Positions 2,832-62,800 of a stretch of 64,000 nt of DNA are shown here, in pieces. The stretch's first letter is position 1. Every line of letters starts with the position of its first letter. The DNA comes from Squalus acanthias (taxonomy: Eukaryota), in NCBI GenBank assembly GCA_030390025.1, contig CM059431.1, positions 135,906,001 through 135,970,000 of the forward strand, read 5' to 3'. The translations under genes and the position numbers were made by a program. The notes below the pieces were generated by a model. The model worked only from the letters and a program-made list of their open reading frames with translations, searched no databases and was not told where the DNA came from.

Positions 2832-2862
<31 letters not shown>

Positions 2863-25468: not shown

Positions 25469-25469
25469 A

Positions 25470-32996: not shown

Positions 32997-33118
32997 AGTG
33001 GCAGGGGGTTGGGTCCCTGAGATGGGAGACAGAGGAAAGGGAAACAAGGATAAAAGCTAAAGACAGGAAGGAGAAAAACAAAAGTAGAAGGCAAAGAACT
33101 CAACGGTTTAAATGAAAC

Positions 33119-38555: not shown

Positions 38556-39693
38556 AATGATATATCACATGGCATTTGCGCAGCACAACCACATCATTAC
38601 ATCAAGCTCAATCCAGGGCATTCTGGAGGGGGAGGGTGAACAGCCAGTTGTCGTGGTGCATATAGGTACCAACGATACAGGTAAAAAACGGGATGAGGTC
38701 CTAAAAGCTGAATATAGGGAGTTAGGAGGTAAATTAAAAAATAGGACCTCAAAGTTAGTAATCTCAGGTTTGCTACCAGTGCCACGTGCTAGTCAGAGTA
38801 GAAATAGAAGGGTATTTCAGATGAATACGTGGCTAGAGGAATGGTGCAAGGGGGAGGGATTCAAATTCCTGGGACATTGGAACTGGTTCTGGGGGAGGTG
38901 GGACCAATACAAACTGGCGGTTTGCACCTGGGCAGGACCTGGACTGATGTCCTAGGGGGAGTGTTTGCTAGTGCTGTTGAGGAGGGTTTAAACTAAAATG
39001 GCAGGGGGTTGGGAACCTGTGCAGGGAGACAGAGGAAAGGGAAGCAAGGATAGAATCAAAAGACAGGAAGGAGAAAAGCAAAAGTGGAAGGCAGAGAAAT
39101 CAAGGGTGTAAATCAAACAGGGCCACAGTAAATAATAATTCTAAAAGGACTAAGAGTGGTAAAAAAAACAAGCCTGAAGGCTTTGGGGTAAAAATTCAGT
39201 TGGTTGCGCCTCCCGTTAGCGCCTTAAGAGGGCGCTAATGGGGCGCAAAGCCGCTAACGCCCGGGCGCAGCGATGTTTGCGCCGCTCGGGAACTTAACTA
39301 GAGATTGTGCAGCGGCGCTAAACCTTACCGCTGCGACCACCTGCGCGCGCAGATTATGACGTCATTCCATGGTGCAACGCCCTTGTGGCGCCCCGGAGCG
39401 CAAATTGAGTGGCGCCCCCTGCCTTACCGCCTGGCGCATCCAACGACCGGAAGACTGGAATGCTATCAATCGCTGTGGGGCTGGGGGTGGCGCTATTTAA
39501 AGGGGGCCTCTTCCTGTCTTTTTCTGTGGTCGACATTTTTGCACCACTCGTTCTGAGAGAGAGAGAGATTCGGAGAGAGAGAAAGAGAGACTTCTACATT
39601 GACTCAACGCTTTGTGAGGTAGTTTTGCCTATTGATCCTAACTTCGCTGGTACTTTAGTTGCTGTCCTTCATTACTTTGCTTGCAAAGAGAAT

Positions 39694-40854
39694 ATGGGGG
39701 CTGCACTGATTGGGGGCGTCGTCCTGCTCCAGCTGAATCGGAGGATACAGAGACGCAGAGAGAGAGTGGCAATGATGGCCAGACGGAGGAGGGCCATCAG
39801 GCGTATGTACAGGAGAGCTTACCCTCCCAGGGTATATCGTGAACAGCTCTCCTACATCCATATGTCTGAGGAGCTGTGTTTGCGAAGGCTGCGATTCAGC
39901 AAGGAGGTGGTCACTGAGCTCTGCCACCTGCTGCAGCCAGATCTGCAGCCTCAACTGAGGTCCAGGACGTCTCTGTCGGTGGCAGTGAAGGTCACAGTGG
40001 CTCTGAACTTTTACGCTACTGGCTCATTTCAAGCTGCTGCTGGGGACCTCGCCAATATCTCCCAGTTCGCGGTGCATTGCTGCATCCGTCAGGTCACAAA
40101 TGCCCTCTTTAAAAGGAGACGAGAGTTCATCTCTTTCCCCATGACCCCAGACAAGCAGCGTGACCGCGCTCTGGGCTTTGTGAGGGTAGCGGGCTTCCCC
40201 ATGGTGCAGGGCGCCATTGACTGCACGCATGTGGCTTTGCGTGCTCCGCATGAGAATGCCGAGGAATTCCGGAACAGAAAGGGGTTCCATTCCTTGAATG
40301 TCCAGTTGGTCTGTGACCACAGACAGCTGATACTCGCTGTCAATGCCCAGTATCCTGGCAGCTGCCACGATGCTTTTATCCTGCGCCAGACTACTGTGGC
40401 AGAACTTTTCGAGGCACCGCATCAGCCAGTTGGTTGGCTTCTCGGGGACAAGGGGTATGCATTGAGCACCTGGCTGATGACACCGCTCCGTACGCCCAAC
40501 ACCCCTGCTGAGCTGCGGTACAATGAGAGCCATCAAGCTACCAGGAACACCGTGGAGCGCACAATCGGCATGCTGAAGCAACGGTTCCGCTGTCTCGACC
40601 ATTCTGGAGGAGCCCTGCAGTACTCGCCTGAGCGAGTATCGAACTTCGTAGTCGTGTGCTGCATGTTGCATAACATGGCAATCCTCAGGACCCAGCCAAT
40701 GCCACCAGGCCTTGGAGCACCACCAGAGGAGGAGGAGGAAGAGGAGGAAGAGGACGCGGAGGATGATCATCAGCAGCACCAAGGCGGGAGGGCAGCCCAC
40801 AATGGTCAAACTGCAAGGGCCGTCCGTCAACGGCTAATAGCAAGCCGCTTCTAG
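39694..40854 (+). CDS. Intact Harbinger DDE transposase (~386 aa)
   Basis: Uninterrupted frame MGAALIGG...RLIASRF* with GAIDCTH, HDAFI, GDKGY and RNTVERTIG; TATTTAAA box at ~39494 upstream. Confidence 0.92.
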   Translation: MGAALIGGVVLLQLNRRIQRRRERVAMMARRRRAIRRMYRRAYPPRVYREQLSYIHMSEELCLRRLRFSKEVVTELCHLLQPDLQPQLRSRTSLSVAVKVTVALNFYATGSFQAAAGDLANISQFAVHCCIRQVTNALFKRRREFISFPMTPDKQRDRALGFVRVAGFPMVQGAIDCTHVALRAPHENAEEFRNRKGFHSLNVQLVCDHRQLILAVNAQYPGSCHDAFILRQTTVAELFEAPHQPVGWLLGDKGYALSTWLMTPLRTPNTPAELRYNESHQATRNTVERTIGMLKQRFRCLDHSGGALQYSPERVSNFVVVCCMLHNMAILRTQPMPPGLGAPPEEEEEEEEEDAEDDHQQHQGGRAAHNGQTARAVRQRLIASRF

Positions 40855-41148
40855 GGCCCCTGCCATTGCTAACAACATTAATGAACCCAGCACGCAACCC
40901 CTAAGCCGGCCAAGGCACCAATAATTCCAACCACCAACCATGTATATTTTGAATACAGAAACTTATTTATTTTACAAACTCTGTGTGTGTCAATTCCTCA
41001 TGACAAACTCATAGAAATAAACACAAAAAAACAGTCAATAACATAACTGGTTCTCACAACCTGGAGATAATGTCCAAAACACTAAACAAAAGTTGGACCA
41101 TGAACCTCGACCTTTAATAAAAAAATGACCAGCATTTTGTCACACCTC

Positions 41149-42973
41149 CTACTTTTTGCCCTTCGAGGGTGATCTCCTTCCCTTGCGCACTTCCCCCCTT
41201 CTAACCCTACTGCTCCTCCGTAATGAGACCTCAGTGGCTGCAGCAAGGCTGGTGGAAGGCTGCTGCTCGTCAGACCCTGACACTGCAGATGCCCCTGAAG
41301 GACGGCCTCGACCACTTCTGGGCCTGGAGGGCCCGGCTGCAGACTGCACCAACTCTGCATGGGCGGCAGCAGTCTGTCCTACAGGCGGTGGCAAGTGCAG
41401 TGGAGAAGTGACAGTGTTGGCAGCAGGAATGCTGTCATCGTGAGAGAGGACAGCAACTCCCTGCTCGCCCGACACACTGGCACTCCCATGGGGCAGCACT
41501 TCAGCATCCGGAGCAATCTGCTGGAGAACAGATTGCTGGCCTGCTGCGGCGCGGTGACAGCCCCGGGGACATGTGCACGAACCATCGAGGTTGGCAGCAG
41601 TCTGTGCTCGCGTGGCCTCAATCTGAGTCTGTATGAGAGCAGTCAGAGATGGGATCACGGCAGCCAGTGACTGAATTGCAGCACTAAGCGTTAGTGTGGC
41701 ATCCGCCTGTGCTACAGCGAAGTGCTCCACACTCCTTGCCAGTGACTCAATGCATTCGGGCACCCTTCCCACTGCACCCATGAGCTCAGTGTGCATGCCC
41801 ACCGCCTGGGTGTTCATTTCTGCGATCAGCCGCTCCTCCTCTGCGTCCATTGCAGTAGGAGTGTCTGGCATACTCTCCCTCTGGGGAGAAGGCCCCCGTT
41901 CTTCCCTACCCCCCCCCCCCATGGCGTTGCTGCAGCCTGCTGGGTCCTGGAGCTTCACCCTCATCAGACCCTTCCCCCCTGCTCCCCTCCAGGGAAGGCG
42001 TGTTCCCAGTGTGGGCATGGGCTTCCTCGGGAGAGGGTGGCACTGATGCTCCGGCTTCCTCTTCCTCCTCAGCTGCAGCATCACTCCCAGTGGCAGCTTC
42101 AGGGCCCGTCTCCTCAGCTGGTGAATCACCATCTGAAAGCAGGGAGGTACAAGAGTGGCTTTAGCGTGAGGACAGGGTGGCAGTAAGGGAGGAATAAGTG
42201 CAGCGAGTTAGCAAGTTGGATTGAAAGTGTCAAAGGCTGGTGTTGTGAGGGACAAGTGGAAGGACAGAGGACAAAAAGGTGATGACCTTACCATTGCTGT
42301 CCAGAACGGGGTCGGCGTCTCCAGTGGCGACGGGACCGATCACCCGGCTTGCCACAATCCTCTGGACGCGCTCCTCCAGATCGCTGAGGGGTTGCAGCTG
42401 AGGCCGACCTCCACCTGTCCGTTGCTGCTGTCTCCGATTATGCGCCAGCTTGGCCTGTAAGAAAAAGGACAGCATCTGAGTAAATATACAGCCATGGTCT
42501 TGCCTGATGTGCCTCCCATAGGTGAATAGCCCTTACTGTATACAGCCATGGTCTTGCCTGATGTGCCTCCCATAGGTGAATAGCCCTTACTGTATGCAAA
42601 GTGTGGAATGTGTGTGTGTTTCATGAAAGGGCCATAGGTGTTGGATGAGTGTTGTGCATTGGGGTTTTAAGACCCTCTGGCCATAGAGTGAGGTTGAGAT
42701 GGAGGGATGGAGAGGTATTGAGAAAAAGCCACTCACCCTGACGACCCGAGTGAGGTCGTTGAACTTTTTGCGGCATTGAGTATGGGTCCTGGGCACCATG
42801 CTCCTGGAGGAGACGCTCTGAGTCACCTCCCTCCACACTGTTCTGAACTCGCGTGGCAAAGGCCTCCTGCCACTCTCAGGGAAGAGCATACATCTTCTGC
42901 GCTTGACCGCGCCAACCAGAGCATCCAAGGCCCGCTCGGTGAAGCGATGAACGCGTTCTCTCACCCTCTCCAT
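41149..42973 (-). CDS. Harbinger Myb/SANT-like protein, 3 exons (42973-42737, 42454-42292, 42132-41149), single +1 frameshift at C12 run
   Basis: GT-AG sites conserved; spliced length 1384 nt (3n+1); C12 at 41909-41920 versus C5 in other copies. Confidence 0.8.
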
Positions 42974-45283
42974 CCTTGGCAGCAAAATGGATTCACAGGT
43001 CTCTCCAGGCCGAGATTCAAGGCTGCAATGAGCAGGGTGTGGCTGGGGAGCAAGTTGGCCCCCCCCGCTTTAAGAAGTGGCCGGCACCAGTGTGTCTGTG
43101 TTCCCTCGCTAACTGGCAGCAGCTGCGCTGCGCTCGCGCGCTGAGTTAGCGCCTCACTCCTTGGCCTTTGCGCCTTAAGACAGGTGTGCAGCGCCTGATT
43201 TAGCGCTCCACTCACCTCCCGGGGCGGTAAAAGTGAAGTTTCCAGTCAGTGCCGACAATTAGCGCCAGGCACTAATATTTGCGTCCAGACGATATGTGCG
43301 CCCCAAATGGGGCGCGACCTAATTTTTACCCCTTTGTGTCTTAATTCGAGGAGCATTTGTAATAAGGTGGATGAATTAGCTGCGCAAATAGATGTAAATG
43401 GATATGATATAATTGGGATTACGGAGACATGGCTCCAGGGTTACCAAGGCTGGGAATTCAACATCCAGGGGTATTCAATATTCAGGAAGGACAGGCAAAA
43501 AGGAAAAGGAGGTGGGGTAGCATTGCTGGTTAAAGAGGAGATTAACACAATAGTAAGGAAGGTTATTAGCTCTGATGATGTGGAATCTGTATGGGTAGAG
43601 CTGAGAAATACCAAGGGGCAGAAAACATTAGTGGGAGTTGTATACAGACCCCCAAACAGTAATGCTGAGGTTGGGGATGGCATTAAATGGGAAATTAGAG
43701 ATGCGTGCAATAAGGGCACAGCAGTTATCATGGGTGACTTTAATCTATATATAGATTGGGCTAACCAAATTAGTAACAATACTGTGGAGGAGGAATTCCT
43801 AGAGTGTATACGAGATAGTTTCCTGGACCAATATGTCGAGGAACCAACTAGAGATCAGGTCATCTTAGACTGGGTATTATGTAATGAGAAAGGATTAATT
43901 AGCAATCTTGTTGTGCGAGGCCCCTTGGGGAAGGGCGATCATAATATGATAGAATTCTTCATTAAGATGGAGAGTTAAGTAGTTGACTCAGAGACTAGGG
44001 TCCTGAATTTAAATAAAGGAAACTACGATGGTATGAGGCGCAAGTTGGCTAGGATGGACTGGGGAGCATTACTTAAAGGGTTGATGGTGGATAGGCAATG
44101 GCAAACATTTAAAGATCGCATGGATGAACGACAGAATTTGTTCATCCCTGTTTGATATAAAAATAAAACAAAAAAGGTGACTCAACCGTGGCTAACAAGG
44201 GAAATTAGGGATAGCATAAGATCCAAGGAGAGGGCACATAAATTGGCCAGAAAAAGCAGCAAACCTGAGGATTGGGAGCAGTTTAGGATTCAGCAAAGGA
44301 GGACAAAGGGATTAATTAAGAGGGGGAAAATAGAGTATGAGAGTAAGCTTGCAGGGAACATAAAAACTGACTGTTAAAGCTTCTATAGATATGTGAAGAG
44401 AAAAAGATTGGTGAAGTCAAGCGTAGGTCCCTTTCAGTCAGAATCAGGGGAATTTATAATGGGGAACAAAGAAATGGCCGACCAATTAAATACATACTTT
44501 GGTTCTGTCTTCACAAAGGAGGACACAAATAACCTCCCAGAGATGTCGGGGAACATAGGGTCTAATGAGAGGGAGGAATTGAATGAAATCAGTATTTGTA
44601 GGGAAATGGTGTTAGGGAAATTGATGGGATTGAAGGCCGATAAATCCCCAGGGCCTGATAATCTACATCCTAGGGTACTTAAGGAAGTGGCCCTAGAAAT
44701 AGTAGATGCATTGCTGGTCATCTTTCAAAATTCTGTAGACTCTGGAACAGTTCCCATGAATTGGAGGGTAGCTAATGTAACCCCACTATTTAAAAAAGGT
44801 GGTAGAGAAAAAACGGGGAATTATAGACCGGTAAGCCTGACATCGGTACTGGGTAAAATGCTAGTGTCCATTATAAAAGATGTAATAGCAGAGCACTTGG
44901 AAAACAGTGACAGGATCGGAGAAAGTCAACATGGATTTACAAAAGGTAAATCATGCCTGACTAATCTACTGGAATTTTTTGAGGATGTAACTGGTAGAAT
45001 AGATAAGGGAGAACCAGTAGATGTGATGTATTTGGACTTTCAGAAAGCTTTCGATAAGGTCCCGCATAAGAGATTAGCGTGCAAAGTTGAAGCACATGGG
45101 ATTGGGGGTTAGGTACTGATTTGGATAGAGAACTGGTTGGCAGACAGCAAGCAAAGAGTTGGAATAAACAGGTCTTTTTCCGAGTGGCAGGCAGTGAGTA
45201 GTGGGGTACCGCAGGGATCGGTGCTAGGACCCCAGCTATTCACAATATATATTAATGATATAGACGAGGGAACTAGATGCAAT

Positions 45284-46045
45284 GGGCCAGAAATTCGGCA
45301 CTTGCCGGGTGAGTACGCACTGTGTACTTACCCGTAAGGCCAGCTGAAGTGTCGGTTTCCTGCATGCACTGCGCATGCGTGGGAAACCGCAACATCCGTT
45401 CCCCTGAAGGGAGGGGTTCAGAGGTGAACCGTGTGCGTGGGAGAGGCTGCGCACACGCAGCGAATTTCGGGTTTTTTTCAGGTTTCTCCGGGAAGGTAAG
45501 TATGGAAGAAGCTGCGCTTTTAAAAAGGAGGCGCAAGACCCATTTTTAACAAGGTAAGTGGTTAATTAATTACAATTTAAAAAAAATTTCAACAGGTTTA
45601 TCTTTTTTAGATACTTTAAAGAAAGTTAAGTTTATTTTTAGCACTGTTAACAAGTATTTTAATTTTTCAAAATTGTAAATATTTGTTTAAAGTAGTTAAT
45701 TTATTTAACTTAGTTATTTTAAAAATGTGATGGTTTTTTTTTAATTTATTTGAAGTTTAGGTGTTGTTTTGGGGCCGATTTCAATTCATAGATTTGACAG
45801 GTCTTCCTGTCAAATCTATGAATGAAAAATGGTCTGCTGCCATTGGCTCCCCATGGCCCACGTGATCCCAGGGGACGCATCGCACTAACTACGCCACTGG
45901 GATTCACAAGCACTGCGCACCGGCAGCTGCAGGAGGCCCAGGAGCTGAAGTCCCCGTGGGCCCAGAGGTCAACGGCAGGCGCGGTAGGTAGGTGCGCGTG
46001 TGATCCTTGCACCCGCGGGAAGCCAGGGAGCCGAATTTCTGGCCC
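45284..46045 (+). mobile_element. Hairpin-family MITE within the CR1 RT domain
   Basis: Perfect TIR GGGCCAGAAATTCGGC; AAT/ATT flanks; colinear with 11953..12717. Confidence 0.92.
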
Positions 46046-46196
46046 ATTACTCTAAGTTTGCAGATGACACAAAGCTGGGTGGGGGTGTGTGCTGTGAGGA
46101 GGATGCAGAGAAACTCCAGTATGATTTGGACAGGTTGGGTAATTGGGCAGATGCATGGCAGATGCAGTATAATGTGGATAAATGCGAGATAAATGC

Positions 46197-47720
46197 GAGT
46201 AGGCCAATCGGCCCCTCGAGCCTGCTCCGCCATTCAATAAGATCATGGCTGATCTGATCCTAACCTCAAATCTAAAGAACACAAGAAGTAGGAGCAGGAC
46301 CCGGCCACTCAGCCCCTGGGCCCGCTCCGCCACCCACAGGGCCTTGACCGATCCAAACTCAGCCTCATGTCCTGCCCGCTCCCCGTAACCCCTAATTCCC
46401 TTTACTTCTAGGAAACTGTCTATTTCTGTTTTAAATTTATTTAATGATGTAGCTTCCACAGCTTCCTGGGGCAGCAAATTCCACAGACCTACTACCCTCT
46501 GAGTGAAGAAGTTTCTCCTCATCTCAGTTTTGAAAGAGCAGCCCCTTATTCTAAGATTATGCCCCCTAGTTCTAGTTTCACCCATCCTTGGGAACATCCT
46601 TACCGCATCCACCCGATCAAGCCCCTTCACAATCTTATATGTTTCAATAAGATCGCCTCTCATTCTTCTGAACTCCAATGAGTAGAGTCCCAATCTACTC
46701 AACCTCTCCTCATATGTCCACCCCCTCATCCCCGGGATTAACCGAGTGAACCTTCTTTGTACCTCGAGAGCAAGTATGTCTTTTCTTAAGTATGGACACC
46801 AAAACTGTATGCAGTATTCCAGGTGCGGTCTCACCAATACCTTATATAACTGCAGCAATACCTCCCTGTTTTTATAATCTATCCCCCTAGCAATAAAAGC
46901 CAACATTCCGTTGGCCTTCTTGATCACCTGCATACTAACTTTTTGATTTTCTTGCACTAGGACCCCCAGATCCCTTTGTACTGCAGTACTTTCCAGTTTC
47001 TCGCCATTAAGATAATAACTTGCTCTCTGATTTTTCCTGCCAAAGTGCATAACCTCACATTTTCCAATATTGTATTGCATCTGCCAAATCTCCGCCCACT
47101 CACCCAGCCTGTCTATATCCCCTTGTAGGTTTTTTATGTCCTCCTCACTTTCTACTTTCCCTCCCATCTTTGTATCATCTGCAAACTTTGATATGTTACA
47201 CTCGGTCCCCTCCTCCAAATCGTTAATATAGATTGTAAAGAGTTGGGGACCCAGCACCGACCCCTGCGGAACACCACTGGCTACTGGTTGCCAGTCCGAG
47301 AATGAACCATTTATCCCAACTCTCTGCTTCCTGTTAGATAACCAATCCTCCACCCATGCCAGAATATTACCCCCAATCCAGTGATTTTTTATCTTGAGCA
47401 ATAATCTTTTATGTGGCACCTTGTCGAATGCCTTCTGGAAGTCTAAATACACTACATCCACTGGTTCCCCTTTATCCACCCTGTACGTTATGTCCTCAAA
47501 GAACTCAAGCAAATTTGTCAGACATGACTTCCCCTTCATAAAGCCATGCTGACTTTGTCCTATTAAATTATGTTTATTTAAATGTTCCATTACTGTCTCC
47601 TTAATAATAGACTCCAAAATTTTACCCACCACAGATGTTAGGCTAACTGGTCTATAATTTCCAGCCTTCTGCCTACTACCCTTTTTAAATAAGGGTGTTA
47701 CATTAGCAGTTTTCCAATCT
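46197..47720 (-). mobile_element. Young 5'-truncated CR1 with an open RT frame
   Basis: ORF 46052..47725 carries the full RT motif set. Confidence 0.92.
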
Positions 47721-47817
47721 AACATAACTATTCATAAAGAAACACAACAATATAATTACAAACACAAACACACACTACCCCCATTTGCTGCTAAAGTATT
47801 CTTTACTCCCCCTTCTT

Positions 47818-49676
47818 CAATGATTTCCCTCCCCTTTTGAGTTCCCCCTCCCAACCCTACAGTTCCCCCGTAATGTGGCCCCAGTGGCTGCAGCAAGGCT
47901 GGTGGAAGGCTCCTGAATCTGGGAGCCAGAGACTGCAGATGACCTTGCAGGATGCCCTCGACCAGCTCTGGGCATGGAAGGCCTGGCTGCAGACTGCACC
48001 ACCTCAGCATGGGCTGGGATGGCTGGGTTACAGGCTGTGACAAGTGCAGTGGCGGATTAGCAGTGGTGGGAGCAGGAATACCGTCATCCTGAGAGAGGAC
48101 AGCACCTTCCTGCTCAACCGACACACTGCCACTCCCTCGGGGCATACCCTCAGCATCCAGAGCAATCTGCTTGAGCACAGATTGCTGGCCTGCTGCGGCA
48201 CCGTGAGATCCCCGGTGGACAGTGGACGACCCTGCGATGATGGCAGCAGTCAGCGCTTGCGTGGCATCAATCTGAGACTGCATGAGAGCAGTCTGAAACT
48301 GGATGCCACCAACTACTGACTCCATCACAGCACTAAGCCATTGCGCTGCTTCGGCCTGTACTGCAATAGCTGCTGCCACCTCACCCATGACACGCGGCAT
48401 AAGGTCTGGGTCCCCACGGTCACTATGCGAGTCGACCATCCTTTCCAAACTGTCAAGGATGGGCTCGATGGTGTGAGCAGAGCTGAGTGCAATGCTGGAG
48501 GTGGACTCCTCCACGCTCCTTGCCAGTTCATCCATGCTCTCGGGCACCCTTGCCATTGCCTGCATGAGCTCGGTGTGCATGCCCATCACCCGTGTCGTCA
48601 ACGCCTCCACATCGAGGTCGTCATTTGAGTCCTGTGCAGCAGAACTCGCGCACGAACTCACCCTCTGGGGAAATGGCCCCCGAGCTTCCCTTTCCCCGTG
48701 GCGTTGCTGCAGCCCGCTGGGTCCCGTAGCTTCACCCACATCAGACCCATCTTCTCGGTTCCCCTCCAGCGACTGCATCGCCCCATTATCGGACCTCGCA
48801 TCTTCAGGAGACACAGGCAGTGAGGCTCTGGCTTGTTCTTCCACCTCCTCTCCCGCGTCACTGCCACTGGGCAGCTGAGGGACAGGCTGTTCAGCTGGTG
48901 GCTGATTATCTGAAAGCATAAAGGCACAAGAGTGGGTTAAGGTCAGGGAAGTGGGGCAGGAAGGGGGCAAGGAATGAAGACAGTATACTTAGATGGAAAG
49001 TGGAAAGGCTTGTGGTGTGAGGGGGAAGTGGTATGAGAGAAGAGGGAGAGGTGATGAGCATACCGTTGTTGTCCCCAAGGGGGTCGACGTCTCCGACGGC
49101 CACAGCACCCACGACCTGGGCCCCAATGATGCTCCCTACTCACTACTCCAGGTCTGTAAGGGGGTACAGGTCCACCTCACCTCCTCACGTTCGTACCTGC
49201 TCCCTCCTGTTGTGAGCAAGCTTGGCCTCCAAGAAAAAGGAAAGCGTGTGAGTGAGTGTGCAGCTATGTGTTTGGCAGATGTGCCCACCATAGTTGAATG
49301 GCTGTTAATGTATGCAAGGCGTGAGATGTGCATGTCACTTTTAGAAGGTGGGCATAATTGGTGGGTGAGTGTTGGAGATGTGATAGATTATACAGTCTGT
49401 GCACAGAGTGAGGTTGAGATAGTGGCATGTAGAGGTTTATGAAGCATCTACTCACCCTGACCACCCGAGTGAGGTCGTTGAATTTCTTCCGGCACTGTGT
49501 CGGAGTTCTGGGGACCACACTTCTGGCCAACACATGCTGGGAGACCTCCCTCCACATCCTCCTAAAGGTCTGTGGCAATGGCCTCCTGCCCATCAGTGTT
49601 CCACAGCCGTGACCAGAGCCTACAAGGCGTGGTCGCTGATCCGGCAAGCTCTCTCTCTGAGCCTCTGATCAGCCAT
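47818..49676 (-). pseudogene. Harbinger B Myb/SANT-like gene, 3 exons, degenerate
   Basis: RTPTQCRKKFNDLTRVVR|GT at 49456; exon 3 homologous to family A. Confidence 0.85.
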
Positions 49677-50032
49677 CAGTTATTGAATGAAGGCTTGCAG
49701 TTCCTTGCAGGCCCAGTTCACAAGCAGCAATGATCAGAGTGAGGCTGTGCAGCATGATTGAACCTCCCCTTTAAGAACTGGAAGGCGCCAGTCTGTCTGA
49801 GGACTCTCTAATTGACAGCATTGGAACTTGATTAGTGCTCTGAAGGTAGCGCCCCCGCTCTGCGATGTTAGCGCCCTAAGAGAAGTGTGTAGTGCTCGAT
49901 TTTGTGCTGCACTTCCCTCTTTGGGCACTAAAACTCAATTTCGCATTCGCCGGAGCTACTTAGCACCTGGCACTAAAGTTAGCGCCCAGGCAATGTTAGC
50001 CCCCCAAAATGGTCGATACCGAATTTTCCCCC

Positions 50033-51355
50033 TCCATCTTTTTGAAAACCTCAATTAGGTCACCTCTTAACCTTCTCTGTTCCAAGGAGAACAGTCCTAA
50101 CTTTTCCAACCTCTCCTCATAACTGAAGTTTCTCATCCCTGGTAACATCCTGGTAAACCTCCTCTGTCCCCTTTCTAAGGCCTTTACATCTTTCCTGAAG
50201 TGTGATGCCCAGAATTGTCCACAATTCTCCAGTTGAGACCTCGTCAGTGATTTATAAATTTCTAGCATCATCTCTTTGCTATCTATATCCTATGCCTCTA
50301 TTTGTAAATCCAAATAACCTGTAAGCTTTTTTAACCACCTTATCAACTTGCTCTGCCACCTTTAAGGATTTGTGTATATGGACACCAAGGACTCTCTGCT
50401 CATCTACACTTTCCAAAATCGTGCCATTTATAGTATACTGTCTTTCCATGTTAGTCCACCCAAAATGCATCACTTCACACTTCTCTGCATTGAACTCTAT
50501 TTGCCATGCTTCTGCCCATTTCACCATCCTGTCTATGTCATCCTGAAGTCCATAACTATCCTCAGAAATATCTGCTACATTGCCAAGTTTCATATCATCT
50601 GCAAACTTTATAATGCTGCTCCCTACAACTGGGTCTAGGTCATTTATAAAAATGAAAAAGAGGAATGGACCACTGCAAACCACCTCCCAGTCTGAAAAAC
50701 ATCTATACACCACCACACTCTGTTTCCTTTCACAGAGCCAATTCCATATCCATACTGCCACTTTCCCCTTAATTCCATGGTCTTCTATCTTCTTAACAAG
50801 TCTCCTGTGTGGCACTTTGTTGAATGCCTTTCGAAAGCCCATATATACAACATCTACTGCACTACCTTGATCAACTTTCTTTGTTACCTCATCAAAGAAT
50901 TAAATCAAGTTAGTGATACACGATTTGCCTTTAACAAATCCATGCTGGCTCTCCTTGATTAACCCTTGCCATTCCAAATGAAAGTTTATTTTGTCCCTGA
51001 TAATAGTTTCCAGTAACATCTCCACTACCGATGTTAGGCTGACTGGCCTGTAGTTTCCTGGTTTATCCCTCACCCCTTTCTTGAGTAGTGGTATAACCTT
51101 AATAACACTCCAGTCCTCTGGCACTACTCCTGTATCCAATGAGGATCGAAAGATTGCGAACAATGCCTCTGCTATTTCTACCTTTGCTTCTTGCAGCAAC
51201 CTAAGATGCATTCCATCCAGACCAGGTGACTTACCAACTTTCTGTAATGCTAATCATTTTAGTATATCTTCTCTATCTATTAGAATCCTGTCCATAACTT
51301 CCCTCTCCTCTTTTAGTGTAACCTTCACATCATCCACTTCCTTTGTGAAGACAGA
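50033..51355 (-). mobile_element. Older CR1 ORF2 fragment
   Basis: ORFs 49996, 50279 and 50900. Confidence 0.85.
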
Positions 51356-51882: not shown

Positions 51883-52253
51883 AGTCATAGAGTCATAGGG
51901 GGAGAAATTCAGTATCGCCCCATTTGGGGCGCAATTATCGGCCGGGCGCAAAGATTAGCGCCTGGCGCTAATTATCGCCTCCGACTGACTTTTATCGCCC
52001 CTGGAGGTGATTGGAGCGCTAAATCAGGCGCTACACATCTGTCTTAAGGCGCAAAGGCCGAGGAGCGAGGCGCTAACTCAGAGCGGCGCGGGTGCAGCAC
52101 AGGTGCTGTCAGTTAGCGATGGAACACAGACACACTGGCGCCGGACAGTTCTTAAAGGGGAGGGTCGATCTTGCACTCCAGCCACACCCTGCTCATTGGA
52201 GCCTTGAATCTTGGCCTGGAGAGACCTGTGCCTAAATCTTCCAGCCAAGGACT

Positions 52254-54012
52254 ATGGAGACGGTGAGAGAATGAGCTCAGCATTTCAGCGAGCGGGCCTT
52301 GGATGCTCTGGTTGGCGCGGTCGAGCGCAGAAGATCTATACTCTTCCCTGAGAGTGGCAGGAGGCCTTTGCCGCACGAGTACAGAAGAGTGTGGAGGGAG
52401 GTGGCTCAGAGCGTCTCCTCCAGGAGCATGGTGCCCAGGACCCATACACAATGTCGAAAAAAGTTCAACGACCTCACTCGGGTCGTCAGGGTGAGTGGCT
52501 TTTTTTCAATACCTCTCCATCCCTCCATCTCAACCTCACTCTATGGCCAGAGGGTCTTAAAACCCCAATGCCCAACACTCATCCAACACCTATGGCCCTC
52601 TCATGAAACACACACGCACATTCCACACTTTGCATACAGTAAGGGCTATTCACCTATGGGAGGCACATCAGGTAAGACCATGGCTGTATATTTACTCAGA
52701 CGCCGTCCTTTTTCTTGCAGGCCAAGCTATCTCATAATAGGAGACAGCAGCAATGGACGGGTGGAGGGCGGCCTCAGCTGCAACCCCTCAGCGATCTTGA
52801 GGCGCGCGTCCACAGGATTGTGGCAAGCCGGGTGATCGGTCCCGTCGCCACTGGAGACGCCGACCCCGTTCTGGACAGCAATGGTAAGGCCATCACCTTT
52901 TTGTCCTCTGTCCTTCCACTTGTCCCTCACAACACCAGCCTTTGACACTTTCAATCCAACTTACTAAATCGCTGCACTCATTCCTCCCTTACTGCCCCCC
53001 TGTCCTCACGCTAAAGCCACTCTTGTACCTTCCTGCTTTCAGATGGTGATTCACCAGCTGAGGAGACGGGCCCTCAAGCTGCCAGTGGGAGTGAAGCTGC
53101 AGGCGAGGAGGAAGATGAAGGCAGAGCATCAGCGTCACCCTCTCCCGAGGAAGCCAATGTCCACACTGGGAACACGCCTTCCCTGGAGGGGAGCAGTGGA
53201 GAAGTGTCTGATGAGGGTAAAGCTCCAGGACCCAGCGGGCTGCAGCAACGCGATGGGGGTAGGGAAGCTCGGGGGCCTTCTCCTTGGAGGGAGAGTAGGC
53301 CAGCGAGTCCTACTGCACTGGACGCAGAGGAGGAGCGGCTCATCACTGAAATGAACACCCAGGCGGTGGACGAGCTCATGGGTGCAGTGGGAAGGGTGCC
53401 CGAATGCATTGAATCACTGGCAAGGAGTGTGGAGCACTTCGCTGTAGCACAGGCGGATGCCACGCAAATGTTTAGTACTGCAATTCAGTCACTGGCTGCC
53501 ATGACCCCATCTCTGACTGCTCTCATGCAGACTTAAATTGAGGCCACGCGAGCACTGACTGCTACCATCCTCGCTGGTTCGGACACATTTCCCCGGGACT
53601 CTCACCGCGCCGCAGCAGGCCAGCAATCTGTGCTCCAGCAGATTGCTCTGGATGCTGAAGTGCTGCCCCGTGGGAGTGCCAGTGTGTCGGTCGAGCAGGG
53701 AGTTGCTGTCCTCTCTCAAGATGACAGCATTCCTGCTGCCACCACTGTCACTTCTCCACTGCACTTGCTGCCGCCTGTAGGACAGACTGCTACCGCCCAT
53801 GCTGAGTTGGTGCAGTCTGCAGCCGGGCCCTCCAGGCTCAGAGCTGGTCGAGGTCGTCCTTCAAGGGCATCTGCAGTCTCAGGTTCTGACAATCAGCAGC
53901 CTTCCACCAGCCTTGCTGCAGCCACTGAGGCCCCATTACGGAGGAGCAGTAGGGTGGGAAGGGGGGGGAAGTGCGCAAGGGAAGGAGATCACCCTCAAAG
54001 GGCAAAAAGTAG
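52254..54012 (+). pseudogene. Myb/SANT-like gene (exons 52254-52490, 52721-52883, 53043-54012) with stops
   Basis: TGA at codon 7; TAA at ~53534. Confidence 0.88.
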
Positions 54013-54308
54013 GAGGTGTGACAAAATGTTGGTCATTTTTTTATAAAGGCCGAGGTTCATGGTCAAACTTTTGTTTAGTGTTTTGGACATTATCTCCAGG
54101 TTGTGAGAACCAGTTATGTTAATGACTGTTTTTTTGTGTTTCTTTCTATTAGTTTGTCATGAGGAAATGACACACACAGAGTTTGTAAAATATTCAAAAT
54201 GTACATGTTTGGTCTTTGGAATCATTGCTGCCTTGGCCGGCTTAGGGGTTGCGGGTTGGTTTCATTCATGTTGTTCTCAATGGCAGAAGCCATTTCCTCA
54301 GCAGGGGC

Positions 54309-55452
54309 CTAGAAGCGGCTGTTGACGGACGGCCCTTGCAGTTTCAACATTGTGGGCCTCCCTCCCGCCTTGGTGCTGCTGATGATCATCCTCCTCCTCT
54401 TCCTCCTCCTCCTCTGGTGGTGCTCCAAGGCCTGGTGGCATTGGCTGGGTCCTGAGGATTGCCAGGTAATGCAGCATGCAGCCCACAACAACGAAGTGGG
54501 AAACTCACTCAGGCGAGTACTGCAGGGCTCCTCCAGAATGGTCCAGACAGCGGAACCGTTGCTTGAGCACGCCGATTGTGTGCTCAACGATGTTCCTGGT
54601 AGCTTGATGGCTCTCGTACCGTAGCTCAGCAGGGGTGTTGGGCGTATGGAGCGGTGTCATCAGCCAGGTGCTCAGTGGATATCCCTTGTCCCCGAGAAGC
54701 CAACCAACTGGCTGATGCAGTGCCTGGAAAAGTTCTGCCACAGTAGTCTGGCGCAGGATGAATGCATCGTGGCAGCTGCCAGGATAGTGGGCATTGACAG
54801 CGAGTATCAGCTGTCTGTGGTCACAGACCAACTGAACGTTTAAGGAATGGAACCCCTTTCTGTTGCGGAAACCCTCAGCATTCTCATGCGGAGCACGCAA
54901 AGCCACAAAGCCACAAAGCCACATGTCAATGGCGCTCTGCACCATGGGGAAGCCTGCTATCCTAGCAAAGCCCATTGCGCATTCTTGCTGCTTGTCTGGG
55001 GTCATGGGGAAAGAGATGTACTCTCGTCTCCTTTTAAAGAGGGCATTTGTGACCTGACGGATGCAGCAATGCACCGCGAACTGGGAGATATTGGCAATGT
55101 CCCCAGTAGCTGATTGAAATGAGCCAGTGGCATAAAAGTTCAGAGCCACTGTGATCTTCACTGCCACCGACAGAGACGTCCTGGACCTCAGTTGAGGCTG
55201 CAGATCTGGCTGCAGCAGGTGGCAGAGCTCAGTAACTACCTCCTTGCTGAAGCGCAGCCTTCGCAAACACTGCTCCTCAGACATATTAATATGTGTGAAT
55301 TATTGGCAATATACCCTGGGAGGGTAAGGTCTCCTGTACAGAGGCCTGTTGGCCCACCTCCATCTGGCCATGATTGCCACTCTCTCTCTGTGTCTCTGTG
55401 TCCTCCGATTCTGGTGGCGCAGGACGACGCCCCCAATCAGTGCAGCCCCCAC
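54309..55452 (-). pseudogene. Harbinger A transposase, disrupted
   Basis: ORF 54505; duplication in the first catalytic motif; start ATG changed to GTG. Confidence 0.9.
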
Positions 55453-57199
55453 AGTCTCTTGGCAATCAAAGTTATGAAGGTCAAAAACCAAAGTACCTGC
55501 AAAGTTATAATCAGTAGCTAAAACTACCTCACACAGCGTTGACTCAATGCAGAAGTCTCTCTTTCTCTCTCTCCGAATCTCTCTCTCTCTCTCTCTCAGA
55601 ACGAGTGGTGCAAAAATGTCTACCACAGAGACAGGAAGAGGCCCCTTTAAATAGCGCCCCCACCCCCCAGCCCCACTGCGACTGGGGAGCGTTCCAGTCT
55701 TCCGGTCGTTGGTTGCGCCAGGCGGAAAGGATGGGGGCGCCACTCAATTTCCACTCCGGGCCGCCATAAGGGCGTTGCACCCTCGTATGACGTCAAGATC
55801 TGCGTGTGCAGGAGATCACGGTGGTAAAGTTTAGCGCCGCCGCAAAATGTCTAGTTAATTTCGCGAGCGGCGCAAACATCGCTGCGCCCGGGCGCAAGTT
55901 ACTTTGCGCCCCATTAGCGCCCTCTTAAGGTGCTAACGGGAGGCGCAACCAACTGAATTTTTCCCCCTACAGCGCAGAAGGAGGCCATTCAGCCCATCGA
56001 GTCCGTGCCGGCTCTCCGCAGAGCAATCCAGTCAGTCCCATTCCCCCACTTTATCCCCATAGCTCTGCAAGTTTATTTCCCTCAAGTGCCTATCCAGTCT
56101 CCCCTTGAAAACATTGAGTGTCTCCGCTTCCACCACTTCCGTCGGCAGCGAATTCCAGGTCCTCACCACTCGCTGCGTAAAAAAGTATTTCCTCACATCC
56201 CCCCTGTATCTATTGCTCAAAACCTTAAATCTGTGCCCCTAGTCCTTGCACCATCAACTAGTGGAAACAGCCTTTCCCCATCTAGCCTATCCAAACGGGT
56301 CATAATTTTGTACACCTCTATCAAATCACCCATCAACCTCCTTTGCTCCAATGAAAACAAATCCAGCTTCTCCAACCTGTCCTTGTAGCTAAGATCCCCC
56401 ATCCCCGGAACCATTCTGGTAAATCTCCTCTACACCCTCTCAAGGGCCTTCACATCCTTCCTAAAGTGTGGTGACCAGAACTGGATGCAATACTCCAGTT
56501 GTGGCCTAACCAGCGCTTTATAAAGGTTCAGCATAACTTCTCCACTTTTGTCCTCAATACCTCCATTTATGAAACCCAAGATCCCATATGCTTTGCTAAT
56601 CACTCTCTCAATATGTTCTGCCATCTACAGGGACCTATGCACATTAACTCTCAGTTCCCCCTGTCCCTGCACACTCTTTAAAACTGTGTTCCTTCTGCCA
56701 AAATGCATCACCTCACACTTCTCTGTATTAAATTCCATCTGCCACTTGTCTGCCCATTCTGCTAGCCTTTCTATGTTCTGTTGCAGTCGATTGGTATCAT
56801 CTCAATTGTTTGCCACACCCCCAAGTTTGGTGTCATCGGCAAATTTAGAAATTCTACTCTGTATTTCAATATCGAGGTCATTTATATATATCAAGAAAAG
56901 CAGTGGCCCCAGCACTGACCCTTGGGGAACACCACTATCTACCATCCTCCAGTCTGAAAAACAGTCATTTACCACAACTCGCTGTATTCTGTCCAGCCAA
57001 TTTCTTATCCAAGCTGCCATTGACCCACCTATTCCATGAGCCTCAATTTTGTTAACCAGTCTTCTATGTGGTACTTTGTCAAACGCCTTCCTAAAATCCA
57101 TGTAGACAACATCCATTGCATTCCCTTCAACAATCCTTCCTGTTACTTCATCAACAAATTCAATTATATTAGTCAAACACGATCTGCCTTTTACAAATT

Positions 57200-59174
57200 T
57201 GGCACATTGGATCAGGACAATTTGGCACATTGGATCCAAAATTGGCTTAGTGGCAGGAGGCAGAGGGTGATGGTCGAAGGTTGTTTTTGTGACTGGTAGC
57301 CTGTGTCCAGTGGTGTACCGCAGGGATCGGTGCTGGGTCCTTTGCTGTTTGTAGTGTACATTAATGATTTAGATATGAATGTAGGAGGTATGATCAGTAA
57401 GTTCGCAGATGACATGAAAATTGGTGGAGTAGTAAATAGCGAGGAGGGAAGCCTCAGGCTACAGGATGATATAGACGGGTTGGTTAGATGGGCAGAACAG
57501 TGGCAAATGGAATTTAACCCTGAAAAGTGTGAGGTGATGCATTTTGGGAGGACTAACAAGGCAAGGGAATACACAATGAATGGTAGGACCCTAGGAAGGA
57601 CAGAGGATCAGAGGGACCTTGGTGTGCATGTACATAGATCCCTGAAGGCAGCAGGACAGGTAGATAAGGTGGTTAAGAAGGCATATGGGATACTTGCCTT
57701 CATTAGCCGAGGTATAGAATATAAGAGCAGGGAGGTTATGATGGAGCTGTACAAAATGCTAGTTAGGCCACAGCTGGAATACTGTGTGCACTTCTGGTCG
57801 CCACACTATAGGAAGGATGTGATTGCATTGAAGAGGGTGCAGAGGAGATTCACCAGGATGTTACCTGGGCTGGAGCGTTTCAGCTATGAAGAGAGACTGG
57901 ACAGGCTGGGGTTGTTTTCCTTAGAGCAGAGAAGGCTGAGGGGGGACCTGATTGAGGTGTACAAAATTATGAGGGGCATAGATAGGGTAGATAGAAAGGA
58001 ACTTTTCCCCTTAGTAGAGGGGTCAATAACCAGGGGGCATAGTTTCAAGGTAAGGGGCAGGAGGCTTAGAAGGGATTTGAGGAAAAACTTTTTCACCCAG
58101 AGGGTGGTTGGAATCTGGAAGTCACTGCCTGAAAGGATGGTAGAGGCAGGAACCCTCACAACATTCAAGAAGCATTTAGATGAGCACTTGAAACACCATA
58201 GCATACAAGGCTACGAACCAAGTGCTGGAAAATGGGATTAGAATAGACAGGGCTTAATGGCCGGAGCAGACACGATGGGCTGAAGGGCCTCTCTGTGCTG
58301 TGAAACTTTATGACTCTATGGGCAGAATTGGCATTGAGCCGTGGAGGCGGGTTTGGAGACGGGACTGGATTGAAAATAGCTGAATCAGGGGTCCCGACCC
58401 CATCCCGCCCCCAACCCACCTCCATGCCAGTTTCGCTGGAGGCGGGTACCCGACCTGTGCTGGTACCCGCCTCCCCGAGGCGGGAAGGGGATTAGTGGCA
58501 ATAAACTGCCTGTTAACAGTTAGTTAACAGGCAGTTTTTTTGCCTAATCCCTATTTTTATGCCTGAAATGTGGGCTGTCCGACAGGTCACAACCACGCTG
58601 TTTCAGCGAGGCGGACTGTAGGTCTGCAGGGGTTGGAGGGGTCGATATGTCTGGTGGGCAGGTGAGTGATGGGTGCATGTGTGCAGAGGTAAGTGTGTAA
58701 GGTAAGTGTAAAGTGTGGAAAAAAGTTTTACTTACCTTAACTTCCTCCTGCTGGTGTCAGCCCTTCATGTCTTGGGAGTCAGAAATCTCACCGGCACAGA
58801 AAGCAGAATGGCCATTGAGCTGTCAAAAGCTGCAGCCTCTGCTTTTTGTTCTGCAGAGATCTCTAAATCAGCCTGAGAGGAAGGAATTAACTTAGAGTAC
58901 AGATTGTCAGTGTTTGACAGCTTCAAAGAGCTGTCAAACGCTGATATTTCATCTGTCAAAAGCTCTTGACAGATGAAATGTCAATCTGTGACGTCACCTG
59001 TTGCCGGGTGGCCCTTAATTGGCCTGCTGAGCCCGCTGGGCGGGCTCAACAAGGTCAATCAAGTGAAAATACAGTGGGTTGGCCACAAGTCGATGGAGGC
59101 GGGACTACAACCCAAAAAGTGGGAGGCCCGCCTCCATCCCGTCCCCAGTTTCAAAATCCAGCCCTATGACTCTA
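57200..59174 (+). mobile_element. 5'-truncated CR1 with a MITE in its (ATGACTCT)n tail
   Basis: 312-aa ORF 57303..58241 encodes the RT C-terminus. Confidence 0.9.
58320..59164. mobile_element. Non-autonomous Harbinger-type MITE related to family C ends
   Basis: GGGC...GCCC termini; TAT TSD; shares GGAGGCGGGTTTGGAG with the reverse complement of 18800-18846. Confidence 0.82.
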
Positions 59175-59864
59175 AATCCGTGTTGGCTCTCCTTAATTAG
59201 CTTAAACCTCTCCAAGTGCCCATTAATTTTTTCCTTGATTATTGTTTCTAAAACTTTACCCACCACTGATGTTAAACTGACCGGCCTGTAGTTACTGGAA
59301 TTGTCCTTACACCCTTTCTTGAACAATGGTGTCACATTTGCCACTTTCCAATCCTCAGGCACCTCCCCCACATCTGGGGAAGATTGGAAAATGATGGCAA
59401 GCCCTTCCGCTATCTCCTCCCCCACTTCCCTTAGCAACCTGGGATGCAAGCCATCTGGACCAGGTGACTAATCCACTCTAATTATACCCAGCCTTTCTAG
59501 TACATCCTGTCTAACAATTTACACCCCTTCCATTGCTTTTACCTTTTCCACTTCTACCGATATTTTGTCAGCATCCACCTCCTTAGTAAACACCGATACA
59601 AAGTACTCATTGAGTATTCTAGCCTTACTCTGTGCCTCTAAGCTTATAGCACCTTCTTTGTCCCTAATAGGCCCCACCCCGCCTCTTACTAACCACTTAC
59701 TGTTTACATGCCGATTTTTGGGTTCCCTTTTATGTTAACCGCCATTCTACTCTCATATTCTCGCTTTACCAATCTTATTTTCATCTTCACTTCCCCTCTC
59801 AACTTATTGTATTTGGTCTGGTTCTGCCTTGAAGAATTCACCTGACATGCATCATACACCCTTT

Positions 59865-62800
59865 TTTAATTTAAATTAGTTAAAGGGTAAGTCATGGCAG
59901 CACGGCTCGGCCCCGTGGCATGCTCCTCCTGCACTATGTGGGAAATCAGGGACACTTCCTGTGTCCCTGACGACCATGTGTGCGGGAAGTGTATCCAGCT
60001 ACAGCTACTGGAAGACCGCATTGCAGCGCAGGAGCTGCGAATGGATACATACTGGAGCATTTGCGATGTTGAGGACGTCGTGGATAGCATGTTTAATGAG
60101 TTGGTCACACTGCAGGTAAAGGCTGCACAGGCAGGAAAGGAATGGGTGACCGCGAGGCAGAGTAGTAGGCGCAGGCAGGTAGTGCAGGGGTCTCCTGCGG
60201 CCATCCCCTCTCAAACAGATATACCGCTTTGGATGTTGTTGGGGGAGATGGCTTATTGGGGGAAGGCAGCAGCAGCCAACTTCCTGGCACCATGGGTGGT
60301 TCTGCTGCACAGGACGGGAGGAAAAAGAGTGGGAGAGCTATAGTGATAGGGGATTGTATTGTAAGGGGAATAGATAGGCATTTCTGCGGCTGCAAACGAG
60401 ACTCCAGGATGGTATGTTGCCTCCCTGGTACAAGGGTCAAGGATGTCTCGGAGCGGCTGCAGGGCATTCTGGAGGGGGAGAGTGAACAGCCAGTTGTCGT
60501 GGTGTATATAGGTACCAACGATACAGGTAAAAAATGGGATGAGGTCCTAAAAGCTGAATATAGGGAGTTAGGAGGTAAATTAAAAAATAGGACCTCAAAG
60601 CTAGTAATCTCAGGATTGCTACCAGTGCCACGTGCTAGTCAGAGTAGAAATAGAAGGATATTTCAGATGAATACGTGGCTAGAGGAATGGTGCAAGGGGG
60701 AGGGATTCAATATCCTGGGACATTGGAACCGGTTCTGGGGGAGGTGGGACCAGTACAAACTGACGGTTTGCACCTGGGCAGGACCTGGACTGATGTCCTA
60801 GGGGGAGTGTTTGCTAGTGCTGTTGGGGAGGGTTTAAACTAAAATGGCAGGGGGGTTGGGAACCTGTGCAGGGAGACAGAAGAAAGGGAAGCAAGGATAG
60901 AAGCAAAAGACAGGAAGGAGAAAAGCAAAAGTGGAAGGCAGAGAAATCAAGGGTGTAAATCAAACAGGGCCACAGTAAATAATAATTCTAAAAGGACTAA
61001 GAGTGGTAAAAAAACAAGCCTGAAGGCTTTGGGGGAAAAATTCAGTTGGTTGCGCCTCCCGTTAGCGACTTAAGAGGGCGCTAATGGGGCGCAAATCATC
61101 TAGCGCCCAGGCGCGGCCATGTTTGCGCCGCTAGCAAAATTAACTAGACATTTTGCGGCGGAGCTAAACACTACCGCCACGATCTCCTGCGCCGGCAGAT
61201 CGTGACGTCAGTCGAGTGCGCAACGCCCCGGTATCGCCCCGGAGCGGATATTGAGTGGCGCCCCCTGCCTTACCGCCTGACGCAAGCAACGACAGGTTGA
61301 GGGGAGCGTTCTGCAGTCATGAAGAGAAAGGGGGGAGCGCTATTTAAAGGTGACGGCTTCCTGGGGGAAAAATTCAGTTGGTTGCGCCTCCCGTTAGCGC
61401 CTTAAGAGGGCGCTAATGGGGTGCAAAGCATCTAGCGCCCAGGCGCGGCAAAGTTTGCGCCGCTCGTGAAATTAACTAGACATTTTGCGGCGGCGCTAAA
61501 CACTACCGCCACGATCTCCTGCGCCGGCAGATCATGACGTCACTCGAGTGTGCAACGCCCCGGTATCGTCCCGGAGCGGATATTGAGTGGCGCCCCCTGC
61601 CTTACCGCCTGACGCTAGCAATGACAGGTTGAGGGGAGCGTTCTGCAGTCATGAAGGGAAAGGGGGAGCGCTATTTAAAGGTGACCGCTTCCTGCCTTTT
61701 ATTGTTGGTGCCATTTTTGAACTACGCATTCTGTGAGAGAGAGGGAGAGACTTCTAGAGAGATTCAACGTTGTGTGAAGGAGTTTTGGGTACTGAGCAGC
61801 ACTTTGCAGGTTCATTTTGATTTGCCATTCCTTGTATCGAATTAGAAGAGACTTTGGTCCTGCACTCTGAGCTCTTTGCCTGGTACTCTCCATTGTTCTT
61901 TCCAGCAGATTTGATGTGCAGGTCTCTCCAGGCAGAGATTCAAGGATGCAATGAGCAGGATGTGGATGGAAAGCAAGATTAACCATCCCCTTTAAGAACT
62001 GGCCCGTGCCATTGTGTGTGTGTTCCATTGCTGACTGACATTACATGAGCTTCGCCAGCGCTCTGAGGTAGCGCCTCGCTCCTCGGCCTTTGCGCCTTAA
62101 GACAGGTGTGAAGCGCCTGATTTAGCGCTCCAATCACCTCCAGTGTCGATAAAAGTCAAGTTTGCAGTCGGTGGCGATAATTAGTGCCAGGCGCTAATCT
62201 TTGCGCCCGGGCCAATAATTGCACCCCAAATGGGGCAATACTGAATTTCTCCCCCTTTGTGTCTTAATTCGAGGAGCATTCGTAATAAGGTGGATGAATT
62301 AGCTGCACAAATAGATGTAAACGGATATGATATAATTGGGATTACGGAGACATGGCTCCAGGGTGACCAAGGCTGCGAATTCAACATCCAGGGGTATTCA
62401 ATATTCAGGAAGGACAGGCAAAAAGGAAAAGGAGGTGGGGTAGCATTGCTGGTTAAAGAGGAGTTTAACACAATAGTAAGGAAGGATATTAGCTCTGATG
62501 ATGTGGGATCTGTATGGGTAGAGCTGAGAAATACCAAGGGGCAGAAAACGTTAGTGGGAGTTGTATACAGACCCCCAAACAGTAATGCTGAGGTTGGGGA
62601 TGGCATTAAATGGGAAATTAGAGACACGTGCAATAAGGTTACAGCAGTTATCATGGGTTACTTTAATCTACATATAGATTGGGCTAACCAAATTAGTAAC
62701 AATACTGTGGAGGAGGAATTCCTAGAGTGTATAAGGGATGGTGTCCTGACCAATATGTCGAGGAACCAACTAGAGATCATGCCATCTTAGACTGGGTATT

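Follow-up and report, generated by a model that had tools for sequence, protein, structure and literature searches.

The closest described system to the one treated here is Harbinger3_DR of zebrafish, accompanied by the non-autonomous Harbinger3N_DR; it comprises a DDE transposase and a Myb-like gene, and the target site duplication (TSD) spans 3 bp and lies within a semi-palindromic target of 15 bp whose half-sites are AAACAC / AAAGAC (PMC3016246, PMC2836001). The integration target is given as AAACACCWGGTCTTT (PMC3016246), a preference for targets of 9-15 bp is described as a trait of the superfamily, and precise excision as usual within it (PMC2836001). NuwaI elements, also from animal hosts, combine DDE and Myb/SANT open reading frames (ORFs) with terminal inverted repeats (TIRs) starting GGG (PMC4482050). 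The same study reports the PIF-Harbinger (PHIS) group as absent from sharks, and a second one states that none was found in elephant shark, other cartilaginous fish being still to be examined (PMC9179366). Here we report on a stretch of 64,000 nucleotides from Squalus acanthias (assembly GCA_030390025.1, contig CM059431.1, positions 135,906,001 to 135,970,000 of the forward strand; hereafter the window, numbered from its first letter), in which two Harbinger-type elements of different length occupy the same TTT in two copies of a CR1 long interspersed nuclear element (LINE). It is quite probable that these are two independent insertions into a preferred 15-bp target, that is, ordinary target choice with no new hitch-hiking or swapping mechanism.

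Self-comparison showed the window to consist almost entirely of nested transposable elements. The site is empty in one CR1 copy (E, about 31800-36027), which belongs to a sister subfamily, and occupied in two others (H1 and H2), as follows.

33175..33189, plus strand: empty 15-bp target GAAGGC-TTT-GTGTCT in CR1 E (motif search, target scoring)
38614..39184, plus strand: 5' part of host H1, with the 3' half of ORF1, the ORF2 start and the left TSD TTT at 39182-39184 (alignment, junction)
39185..43332, plus strand: potentially autonomous Harbinger-type element of family A, 4,148 bp (TIRs, TSD)
43333..46188, plus strand: 3' part of host H1, with the right TSD TTT at 43333-43335 and ORF2, broken at 45284-46045, its 3' end lost
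59860..61030, plus strand: 5' part of host H2, with the end of the 5' untranslated region, ORF1, the ORF2 start and the left TSD TTT at 61028-61030
61031..61362, plus strand: extra 332-bp left end of a non-autonomous element, N (94.9% identity to 61363-61693)
61363..62255, plus strand: complete 893-bp non-autonomous Harbinger N (93.4% identity to the copy at 22881-23774)
62256..64000, plus strand: 3' part of host H2, with the right TSD TTT at 62256-62258 and ORF2, continuing past the window

The left CR1 motif followed by TTT was found at 33171, 39172 and 61018, and TTT followed by the right CR1 motif at 33181, 43333 and 62256, with no other exact match of either on either strand of the window. 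The CR1 ORF2 site is uninterrupted at 33171-33193, and the same point is split by the elements 39185-43332 and 61031-62255; a single TTT stands at the empty site (33181) and TTT on both sides of each occupant, which makes a 3-bp TSD. The insertion point lies in the codons just ahead of the first endonuclease motif of ORF2 (L-C-L-N-A-R-S). The first-pass annotation had placed two Harbinger elements, differing in size and TIR and neither a simple deletion of the other, at this one TTT, with the site empty at 33181. The motif scan and the junctions agree on the site, and the occupants do differ in length (4,148 versus 1,225 bp), in TIR start (GGGGT versus GGGGG) and by about 21% at both ends. An empty site is not distinguishable from one that was precisely vacated.

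In contigs of four out of four sequencing runs, compared with 38700-43800, joints were found that skip the element, so that empty sites exist; the contigs are short and the tables partial, and these joints yield no occupancy figure. One joint in run X4, from 39153 to 39185 (1 contig, intervening letters unknown), may come from a variant host that is occupied, and it was left out of account. An exact scan of viral contigs for the 21-nt CR1 junction returned 0 stretches; the match in 1 stretch of metagenome contigs was rejected as chance, its likeness being limited to the 21-22-nt pattern.

The long occupant is 88-91% identical to full-length copies at 1275 and 55967, and its TIRs start GGGGT at both ends. 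Its coding features, from which it is judged potentially autonomous, are these.

39409..40854, plus strand: transposase frame, 481 codons from stop to stop, no internal stop (DDE_Tnp_4, PF13359, E=3e-40)
41149..42207, minus strand: predicted last exon of the second Harbinger gene, open frame (reading frames)
42737..42973, minus strand: Myb/SANT exon of the second Harbinger gene (Myb_DNA-bind_5, PF13873, E=8e-8)

The transposase probably starts at the ATG near 39694, and the splice junctions of the Myb gene are predicted. Among the best 120 of 214 transposase relatives, nearly all are named putative nuclease HARBI1, and the nearest are those of sharks and rays, at no more than 70% identity. A T at base 5 of both TIRs (39185-39189, 43328-43332) occurs only in the 39185 copy, whereas its sister right-end haplotype at 6290 has the usual base; the T is either a sub-lineage trait or the result of conversion between the two TIRs. 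An intron of the Myb gene carries a 60-bp tandem unit (42479-42598 region; 4568-4735), the copy number of which varies among family-A copies.

The short occupant (61031-62255, 1,225 bp) is non-coding, with GGGGG at the start of both TIRs, and is composite, a 332-bp left end preceding the complete 893-bp element. Its relatives in the window lie at 22881-23774 and 5477-6290, and the N copies are 92-95% identical among themselves. The final bases of the 332-bp piece match the host flank at 8/9 bases, and the extra left end is most likely an in-place tandem duplication by way of this 9-nt likeness; a nested N followed by loss of the shared right part would yield the same structure. The two left ends (61031 and 61363) differ by 5.1% (17/331). 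The H2 tip is ~2.5% long (38 changes in 510 codons), about half of that figure, and an early arrival of N at the CR1 site would follow. Taken as sisters they have 3 shared derived sites, versus 2 and 1 for the other pairings, few sites in each case.

The long and short occupants differ by 20.9% (94/449) on the left and 21.0% (77/366) on the right, and their hosts by 3.9% (91/2307). The occupants are separate lineages, so that no history can do with fewer than two occupation events. An origin of N as a deletion derivative of the 39185 element is ruled out by their 76-80% identity; a direct derivation of the 61031 element from it, named in the first-pass annotation as a refuting outcome, is not what the alignments show.

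Family A has the features of the PHIS / PIF-Harbinger group, namely a HARBI1-type DDE transposase, a second gene with a Myb/SANT domain, short TIRs, a 3-bp TSD and an extended 9-15-bp target preference, the last seen in the window sites, matrices and contig ends described below. Its TSDs in the window (TTT, TTT, ATA, AAG and TA(T)) follow neither the TWA of the strict PIF/Harbinger group nor the CWG of the NuwaI group (PMC4482050). With NuwaI it shares the DDE and Myb/SANT frames, the GGG start and an animal host, at a size of ~4.1 kb versus a NuwaI mean of ~4.5 kb (PMC4482050). The likeness to Harbinger3_DR, which rests on architecture and target and not on protein identity, takes in the transposase and Myb-like genes, the autonomous and non-autonomous members and the 3-bp TSD within a 15-bp semi-palindromic target. 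Unlike in zebrafish, the centre is not CWG (TTT, ATA, AAG and TAT, with a TAT consensus in run X16), the target looks more degenerate, and the host is a cartilaginous fish.

All 4,214 positions of the empty CR1 E were scored with three matrices, one built from three other sites of family A, one from the half-sites in the literature and one from the two sources combined; none used the CR1 site, which ranked 3, 3 and 1. Its 3 mismatches to AAASAC-NNN-GTSTTT all stay within purine/pyrimidine class, and positions with at most 3 mismatches number 4/4,214 in CR1 E and make up 0.08% of the window. The other family-A sites have 3, 4 (1275) and 7 (55967) mismatches; the corresponding position in a distant CR1 at 15302 has 5 and is empty. 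Independently, a related organism, run X16 (0.39 of words), supplied 344 contig ends that adjoin the left TIR; their consensus flank is AAAGAC followed by TAT, at an agreement of 0.66. A degenerate pattern that matched only the CR1 site in E (10 matches in the window) was circular, having been written after the site was seen, and was not counted. The overall pattern is well beyond chance for a random target. The targeting hotspot that the first-pass annotation gave as one alternative is thus supported, with a cause already known, the extended semi-palindromic target.

On this reading, H1 and H2 would have retrotransposed separately as copies of one CR1 subfamily, and each would later have been struck independently, once by the 4.1-kb element and once by its 0.9-kb non-autonomous relative. 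The transposase complex would read a degenerate semi-palindromic 15-bp target (about AAASAC-NNN-GTSTTT) and duplicate its middle three bases. With the best or near-best target of a 4.2-kb CR1 at this site, every copy of the LINE would offer the same landing pad. We infer this order of events, and the target may be read by a transposase/Myb pair as in Harbinger3_DR. Same-site double insertions in Drosophila are alike in being independent hits from site preference that favour near-consensus sites, and unlike in being tandems at one locus, whereas here paralogous LINE copies were hit (PMC5932611).

The hosts are of CR1 type, a domain search giving Lipase_GDSL_2 in E, H1 and H2 (the Pfam match of the esterase ORF1 falling in the frame 37894-38952 at H1) and Exo_endo_phos and RVT_1 in E; E ends in a short tandem-repeat 3' tail (about 36000-36030), the 3' end of H1 is lost and that of H2 lies past the window. 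The first-pass annotation took H1 and H2 for close relatives, and they do agree closely, with 97.5% identity in the 565 nt compared upstream of the site, 95.6% in the 1,742 nt compared downstream and IKWEIRD in both; each is ~90-91% identical to the empty copy E, whose own partner is a fourth copy, M (97.2%). A common 1-nt deletion in ORF1 had also been claimed: both hosts do lack one base (~38917, ~60762), but the remaining letters differ, H1 being without the A and H2 without the G of GGA, so that either two deletions took place or a single one together with a transition. Contigs of all four runs (14, 30, 58 and 65 contigs) carry the base missing from H1. Indel shares in that comparison undercount, since an A-run length peculiar to H1 among H1, H2 and E comes out at 4-12% there, and they give no frequency of the ORF1 deletion.

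The 5' end of H2 takes in ~590 nt of the CR1 that H1 does not have. H1 is 5'-truncated near 38614 inside another Harbinger, with 5-nt microhomology to the flank, a kind of junction typical of, but not confined to, 5'-truncated LINE inserts (PMC4245944); for H2 the start lies near 59860, within an old piece of LINE. Comparison of 2.5-kb and 3.5-kb upstream flanks gave an inverted 75% LINE fragment as the sole match and no shared outer flank on this 5' side, the H2 3' flank lying beyond the window. Among the composites that the first-pass annotation had proposed to look for, independent 5' ends of the hosts were seen and shared outer 5' flanks were not. ORF2 has 3 private stops in the aligned part of H1, and 4 private stops and a private frameshift in H2, none of them common. 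Over the 510 codons present in all four close copies, the branch shared by H1 and H2 carries 17 synonymous and 8 non-synonymous changes, where the four tips together have 28 : 70 (p=4e-4 in a Fisher test; neutral expectation 20-27% synonymous), and shows no difference from the E/M sister branch (27 : 18, p=0.61). A further 18 branch changes were without polarity (8 : 10, including the W of IKWEIRD) and 8 were of other patterns; without M, 559 codons give 21 : 10 changes shared by H1 and H2. Purifying selection on the shared branch and the lack of a shared stop indicate that the shared history is mostly that of a working master copy, and H1 and H2 look like separate retrotranspositions.

Several points weigh against independent strikes on separately retrotransposed hosts. 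H1 and H2, which are mutual nearest relatives, lie in one orientation with 22 kb between them and have in common the ORF1 frameshift, the W of IKWEIRD and, in LNARS, an A-to-S change. Were the 10 non-synonymous changes that they share all neutral, up to ~0.8% of shared decay would be possible, and with it a duplication soon after insertion. Non-CpG divergence is 3.4% for the hosts and 3.5-4.5% for the family copies, so that both are of like age and dating gives no order of events. The matrices were built from 2-8 half-sites; the 1275 site has 4 mismatches, and 55967, one of four distinct family-A sites, fits badly on one side. The X16 consensus comes from a related organism, not the run with the largest share of words, and is among the 24 loose ends listed of ~7,400, and the CR1 copies with the exact site number three (2 occupied, 1 empty), all in the window. 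The proximity, common orientation and 96% identity of the hosts, with the ORF1 loss and the A-to-S and R-to-W changes, would fit a local DNA duplication of the CR1 soon after its insertion, followed by separate hits or by precise excision and re-entry, and the ORF1 deletion is not universal, as the contigs with the H1-missing base show. We consider this history unlikely. No outer 5' flank and no ORF2 stop or frameshift is shared, the 5' ends differ, the shared branch is as synonymous as that of the sister subfamily, and E and M, which are closer still (2.8% apart), have different ends in the same window. ORF1 is described as dispensable in cell assays for ZfL2-1, of the CR1 group (PMC3905857), and as repeatedly lost in CR1s (PMC13343379), so that a master copy can carry a broken ORF1. 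Local duplication would differ from separate retrotransposition only in the origin of the hosts, because same-site occupancy still needs a target preference; precise excision and re-entry, for which the superfamily's usual mode of excision speaks, would look just like independent targeting and would be the same mechanism.

The other course set out in the first-pass annotation, one insertion duplicated or retrotransposed as a chimera and then swapped, is not favoured, since the host 5' ends and outer flanks differ, the shared ORF2 branch is still under purifying selection and the 61031 ends are unlike those of 39185 to the fifth base of both TIRs. Replacement of one occupant by gap repair after duplication with the host has a model in P elements, where one member precisely replaces another (PMC3887531), and swapping between A and N has occurred in this family, in a mosaic copy that looks similar.

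5477..6290, plus strand: mosaic non-autonomous copy with 39185-type ends and an N-type middle (informative-site painting)

The mosaic has the 39185 haplotype to ~5730 and from ~6108 and is N-type between, which suggests that autonomous and non-autonomous members exchanged sequence by recombination or gap repair. Gap repair, however, needs homology at the broken ends and keeps the original ends, and the 61031 ends have the N (22881) haplotype: the 61031/61363 element is N-type along both ends, as is the 22881 copy, and it departs from 39185 in both TIRs at base 5 and in the right end at several of the final 20 bases. Lacking 39185-type ends, it is no swap product like 5477-6290 and is unlike the P-element replacements (PMC3887531). 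An account by gap repair is largely refuted already by these end haplotypes, and we regard it as highly improbable. Least credible of all is a CR1 with a Harbinger at the ORF2 start, retrotransposed in trans as a chimera with independent 5' truncations. Independent 5' ends, a microhomology junction typical of LINE truncation (PMC4245944) and occupants about as old as the host split agree with it, but a chimera would copy its occupant and the occupants are 21% apart; moreover, the insertion kills ORF2, yet the shared ORF2 branch is purifying, and H1 would need ~7.5 kb of unbroken reverse transcription through the Harbinger genes.

A preference evolved for CR1 beyond the general motif, whether as a safe harbour or through retention because insertion kills ORF2, likewise merits very little credence. 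Five family-A insertions have both flanks in the window, and LINE sequence surrounds at least four of them (1275, 39185, 55967, 61031); also, the cut in ORF2 falls just ahead of the first endonuclease motif; against this, LINE fragments fill much of the window, CR1-group elements make up 22-34% of shark and ray genomes (PMC13343379), the insertions are at differing CR1 positions and TSDs, and the motif is like that of zebrafish Harbinger3_DR and need not have been shaped by CR1. Homing-like spread, in which an excision break in a LINE is repaired from an occupied LINE copy and the occupant copied in, is very unlikely too. Its only hint is the lower difference between H1 and H2 beside the site (2/167 and 5/200, versus 6-13 per 200 elsewhere), and the different occupants argue against conversion between H1 and H2. 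If it were true, with tens of thousands of hosts, a DNA transposon would amplify through a LINE family and inactivate it, at the first endonuclease motif; occupancy would stand far above the motif score, and short CR1 tracts would be co-converted with each occupant haplotype.

A second case of the same kind serves as an internal control.

45284..46045, plus strand: TIR element of family C, non-coding, after the AAT at 35076-35078 of the empty CR1 (alignment)
27481..28230, minus strand: family C element at the same ORF2 position in CR1 M, of the other subfamily (alignment)

These occupants of one ORF2 site in H1 and M are 29.9% apart, their hosts ~9%, and the site is empty in E and in the distant CR1 copy; the right TSDs are degraded in both copies, so that it is the left junctions which define the common point. 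The 64 kb thus hold two cases in which one site is occupied without common descent. Family C has ends like GGGCCAGAAATT and the left TSD AAT in three copies (45284-46045, 27481-28230, 11953-12717), the third of which appears to lie inside a related element.

Further observations concern the CR1 copies and their surroundings. ORF1 ends TTTAAAC-TAA in all four aligned copies (E at 32987-32996, H1, H2 and the CR1 at 15302), and the frame leading into ORF2 is open behind this motif in E and H2. Tandem GC-rich units of ~78 bp (31480-31786) lie in the 5' region of CR1 E, and a 34-bp satellite (25464-31478, 36029-36180) holds E and M, which are 97% alike and mutually inverted. Another two-gene Harbinger (36946-38613, about 47732-50033), ~66-80% identical to family A and with outer half-sites resembling AAASAC, is interrupted by H1 and a second CR1, which lie between its two convergent genes. 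Two different TIR families sit in short tandem-repeat 3' tails of CR1s (51898-55967, 58320-59164), with a TAT-type centre in both. At 1275-5473 an ATA TSD encloses a full-length family-A element, followed by TTT and the N-type copy 5477-6290, which lacks its first ~80 bases; the TTT matches neither the TSD nor N sequence, and the structure may go back to an insertion, nested or double, that later suffered a deletion.

The literature searched gave no account of a Harbinger hotspot in CR1, most subscription papers and Repbase reports being beyond reach. The behaviour itself is known already, and what is new is the family in a cartilaginous fish, Harbinger-type, abundant and active in recent time, whose target is Harbinger3_DR-like with a non-CWG centre. 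Its near-intact natural copy with a definable target would be of some use for studying how a 15-bp preference is read. For a transposon with a long target, a shared insertion point in two repeat copies is no proof of common descent, which calls for caution in nested-repeat dating and in duplication calls. Occupancy beyond motif prediction, if true, would matter much more, as targeted LINE inactivation or homing.

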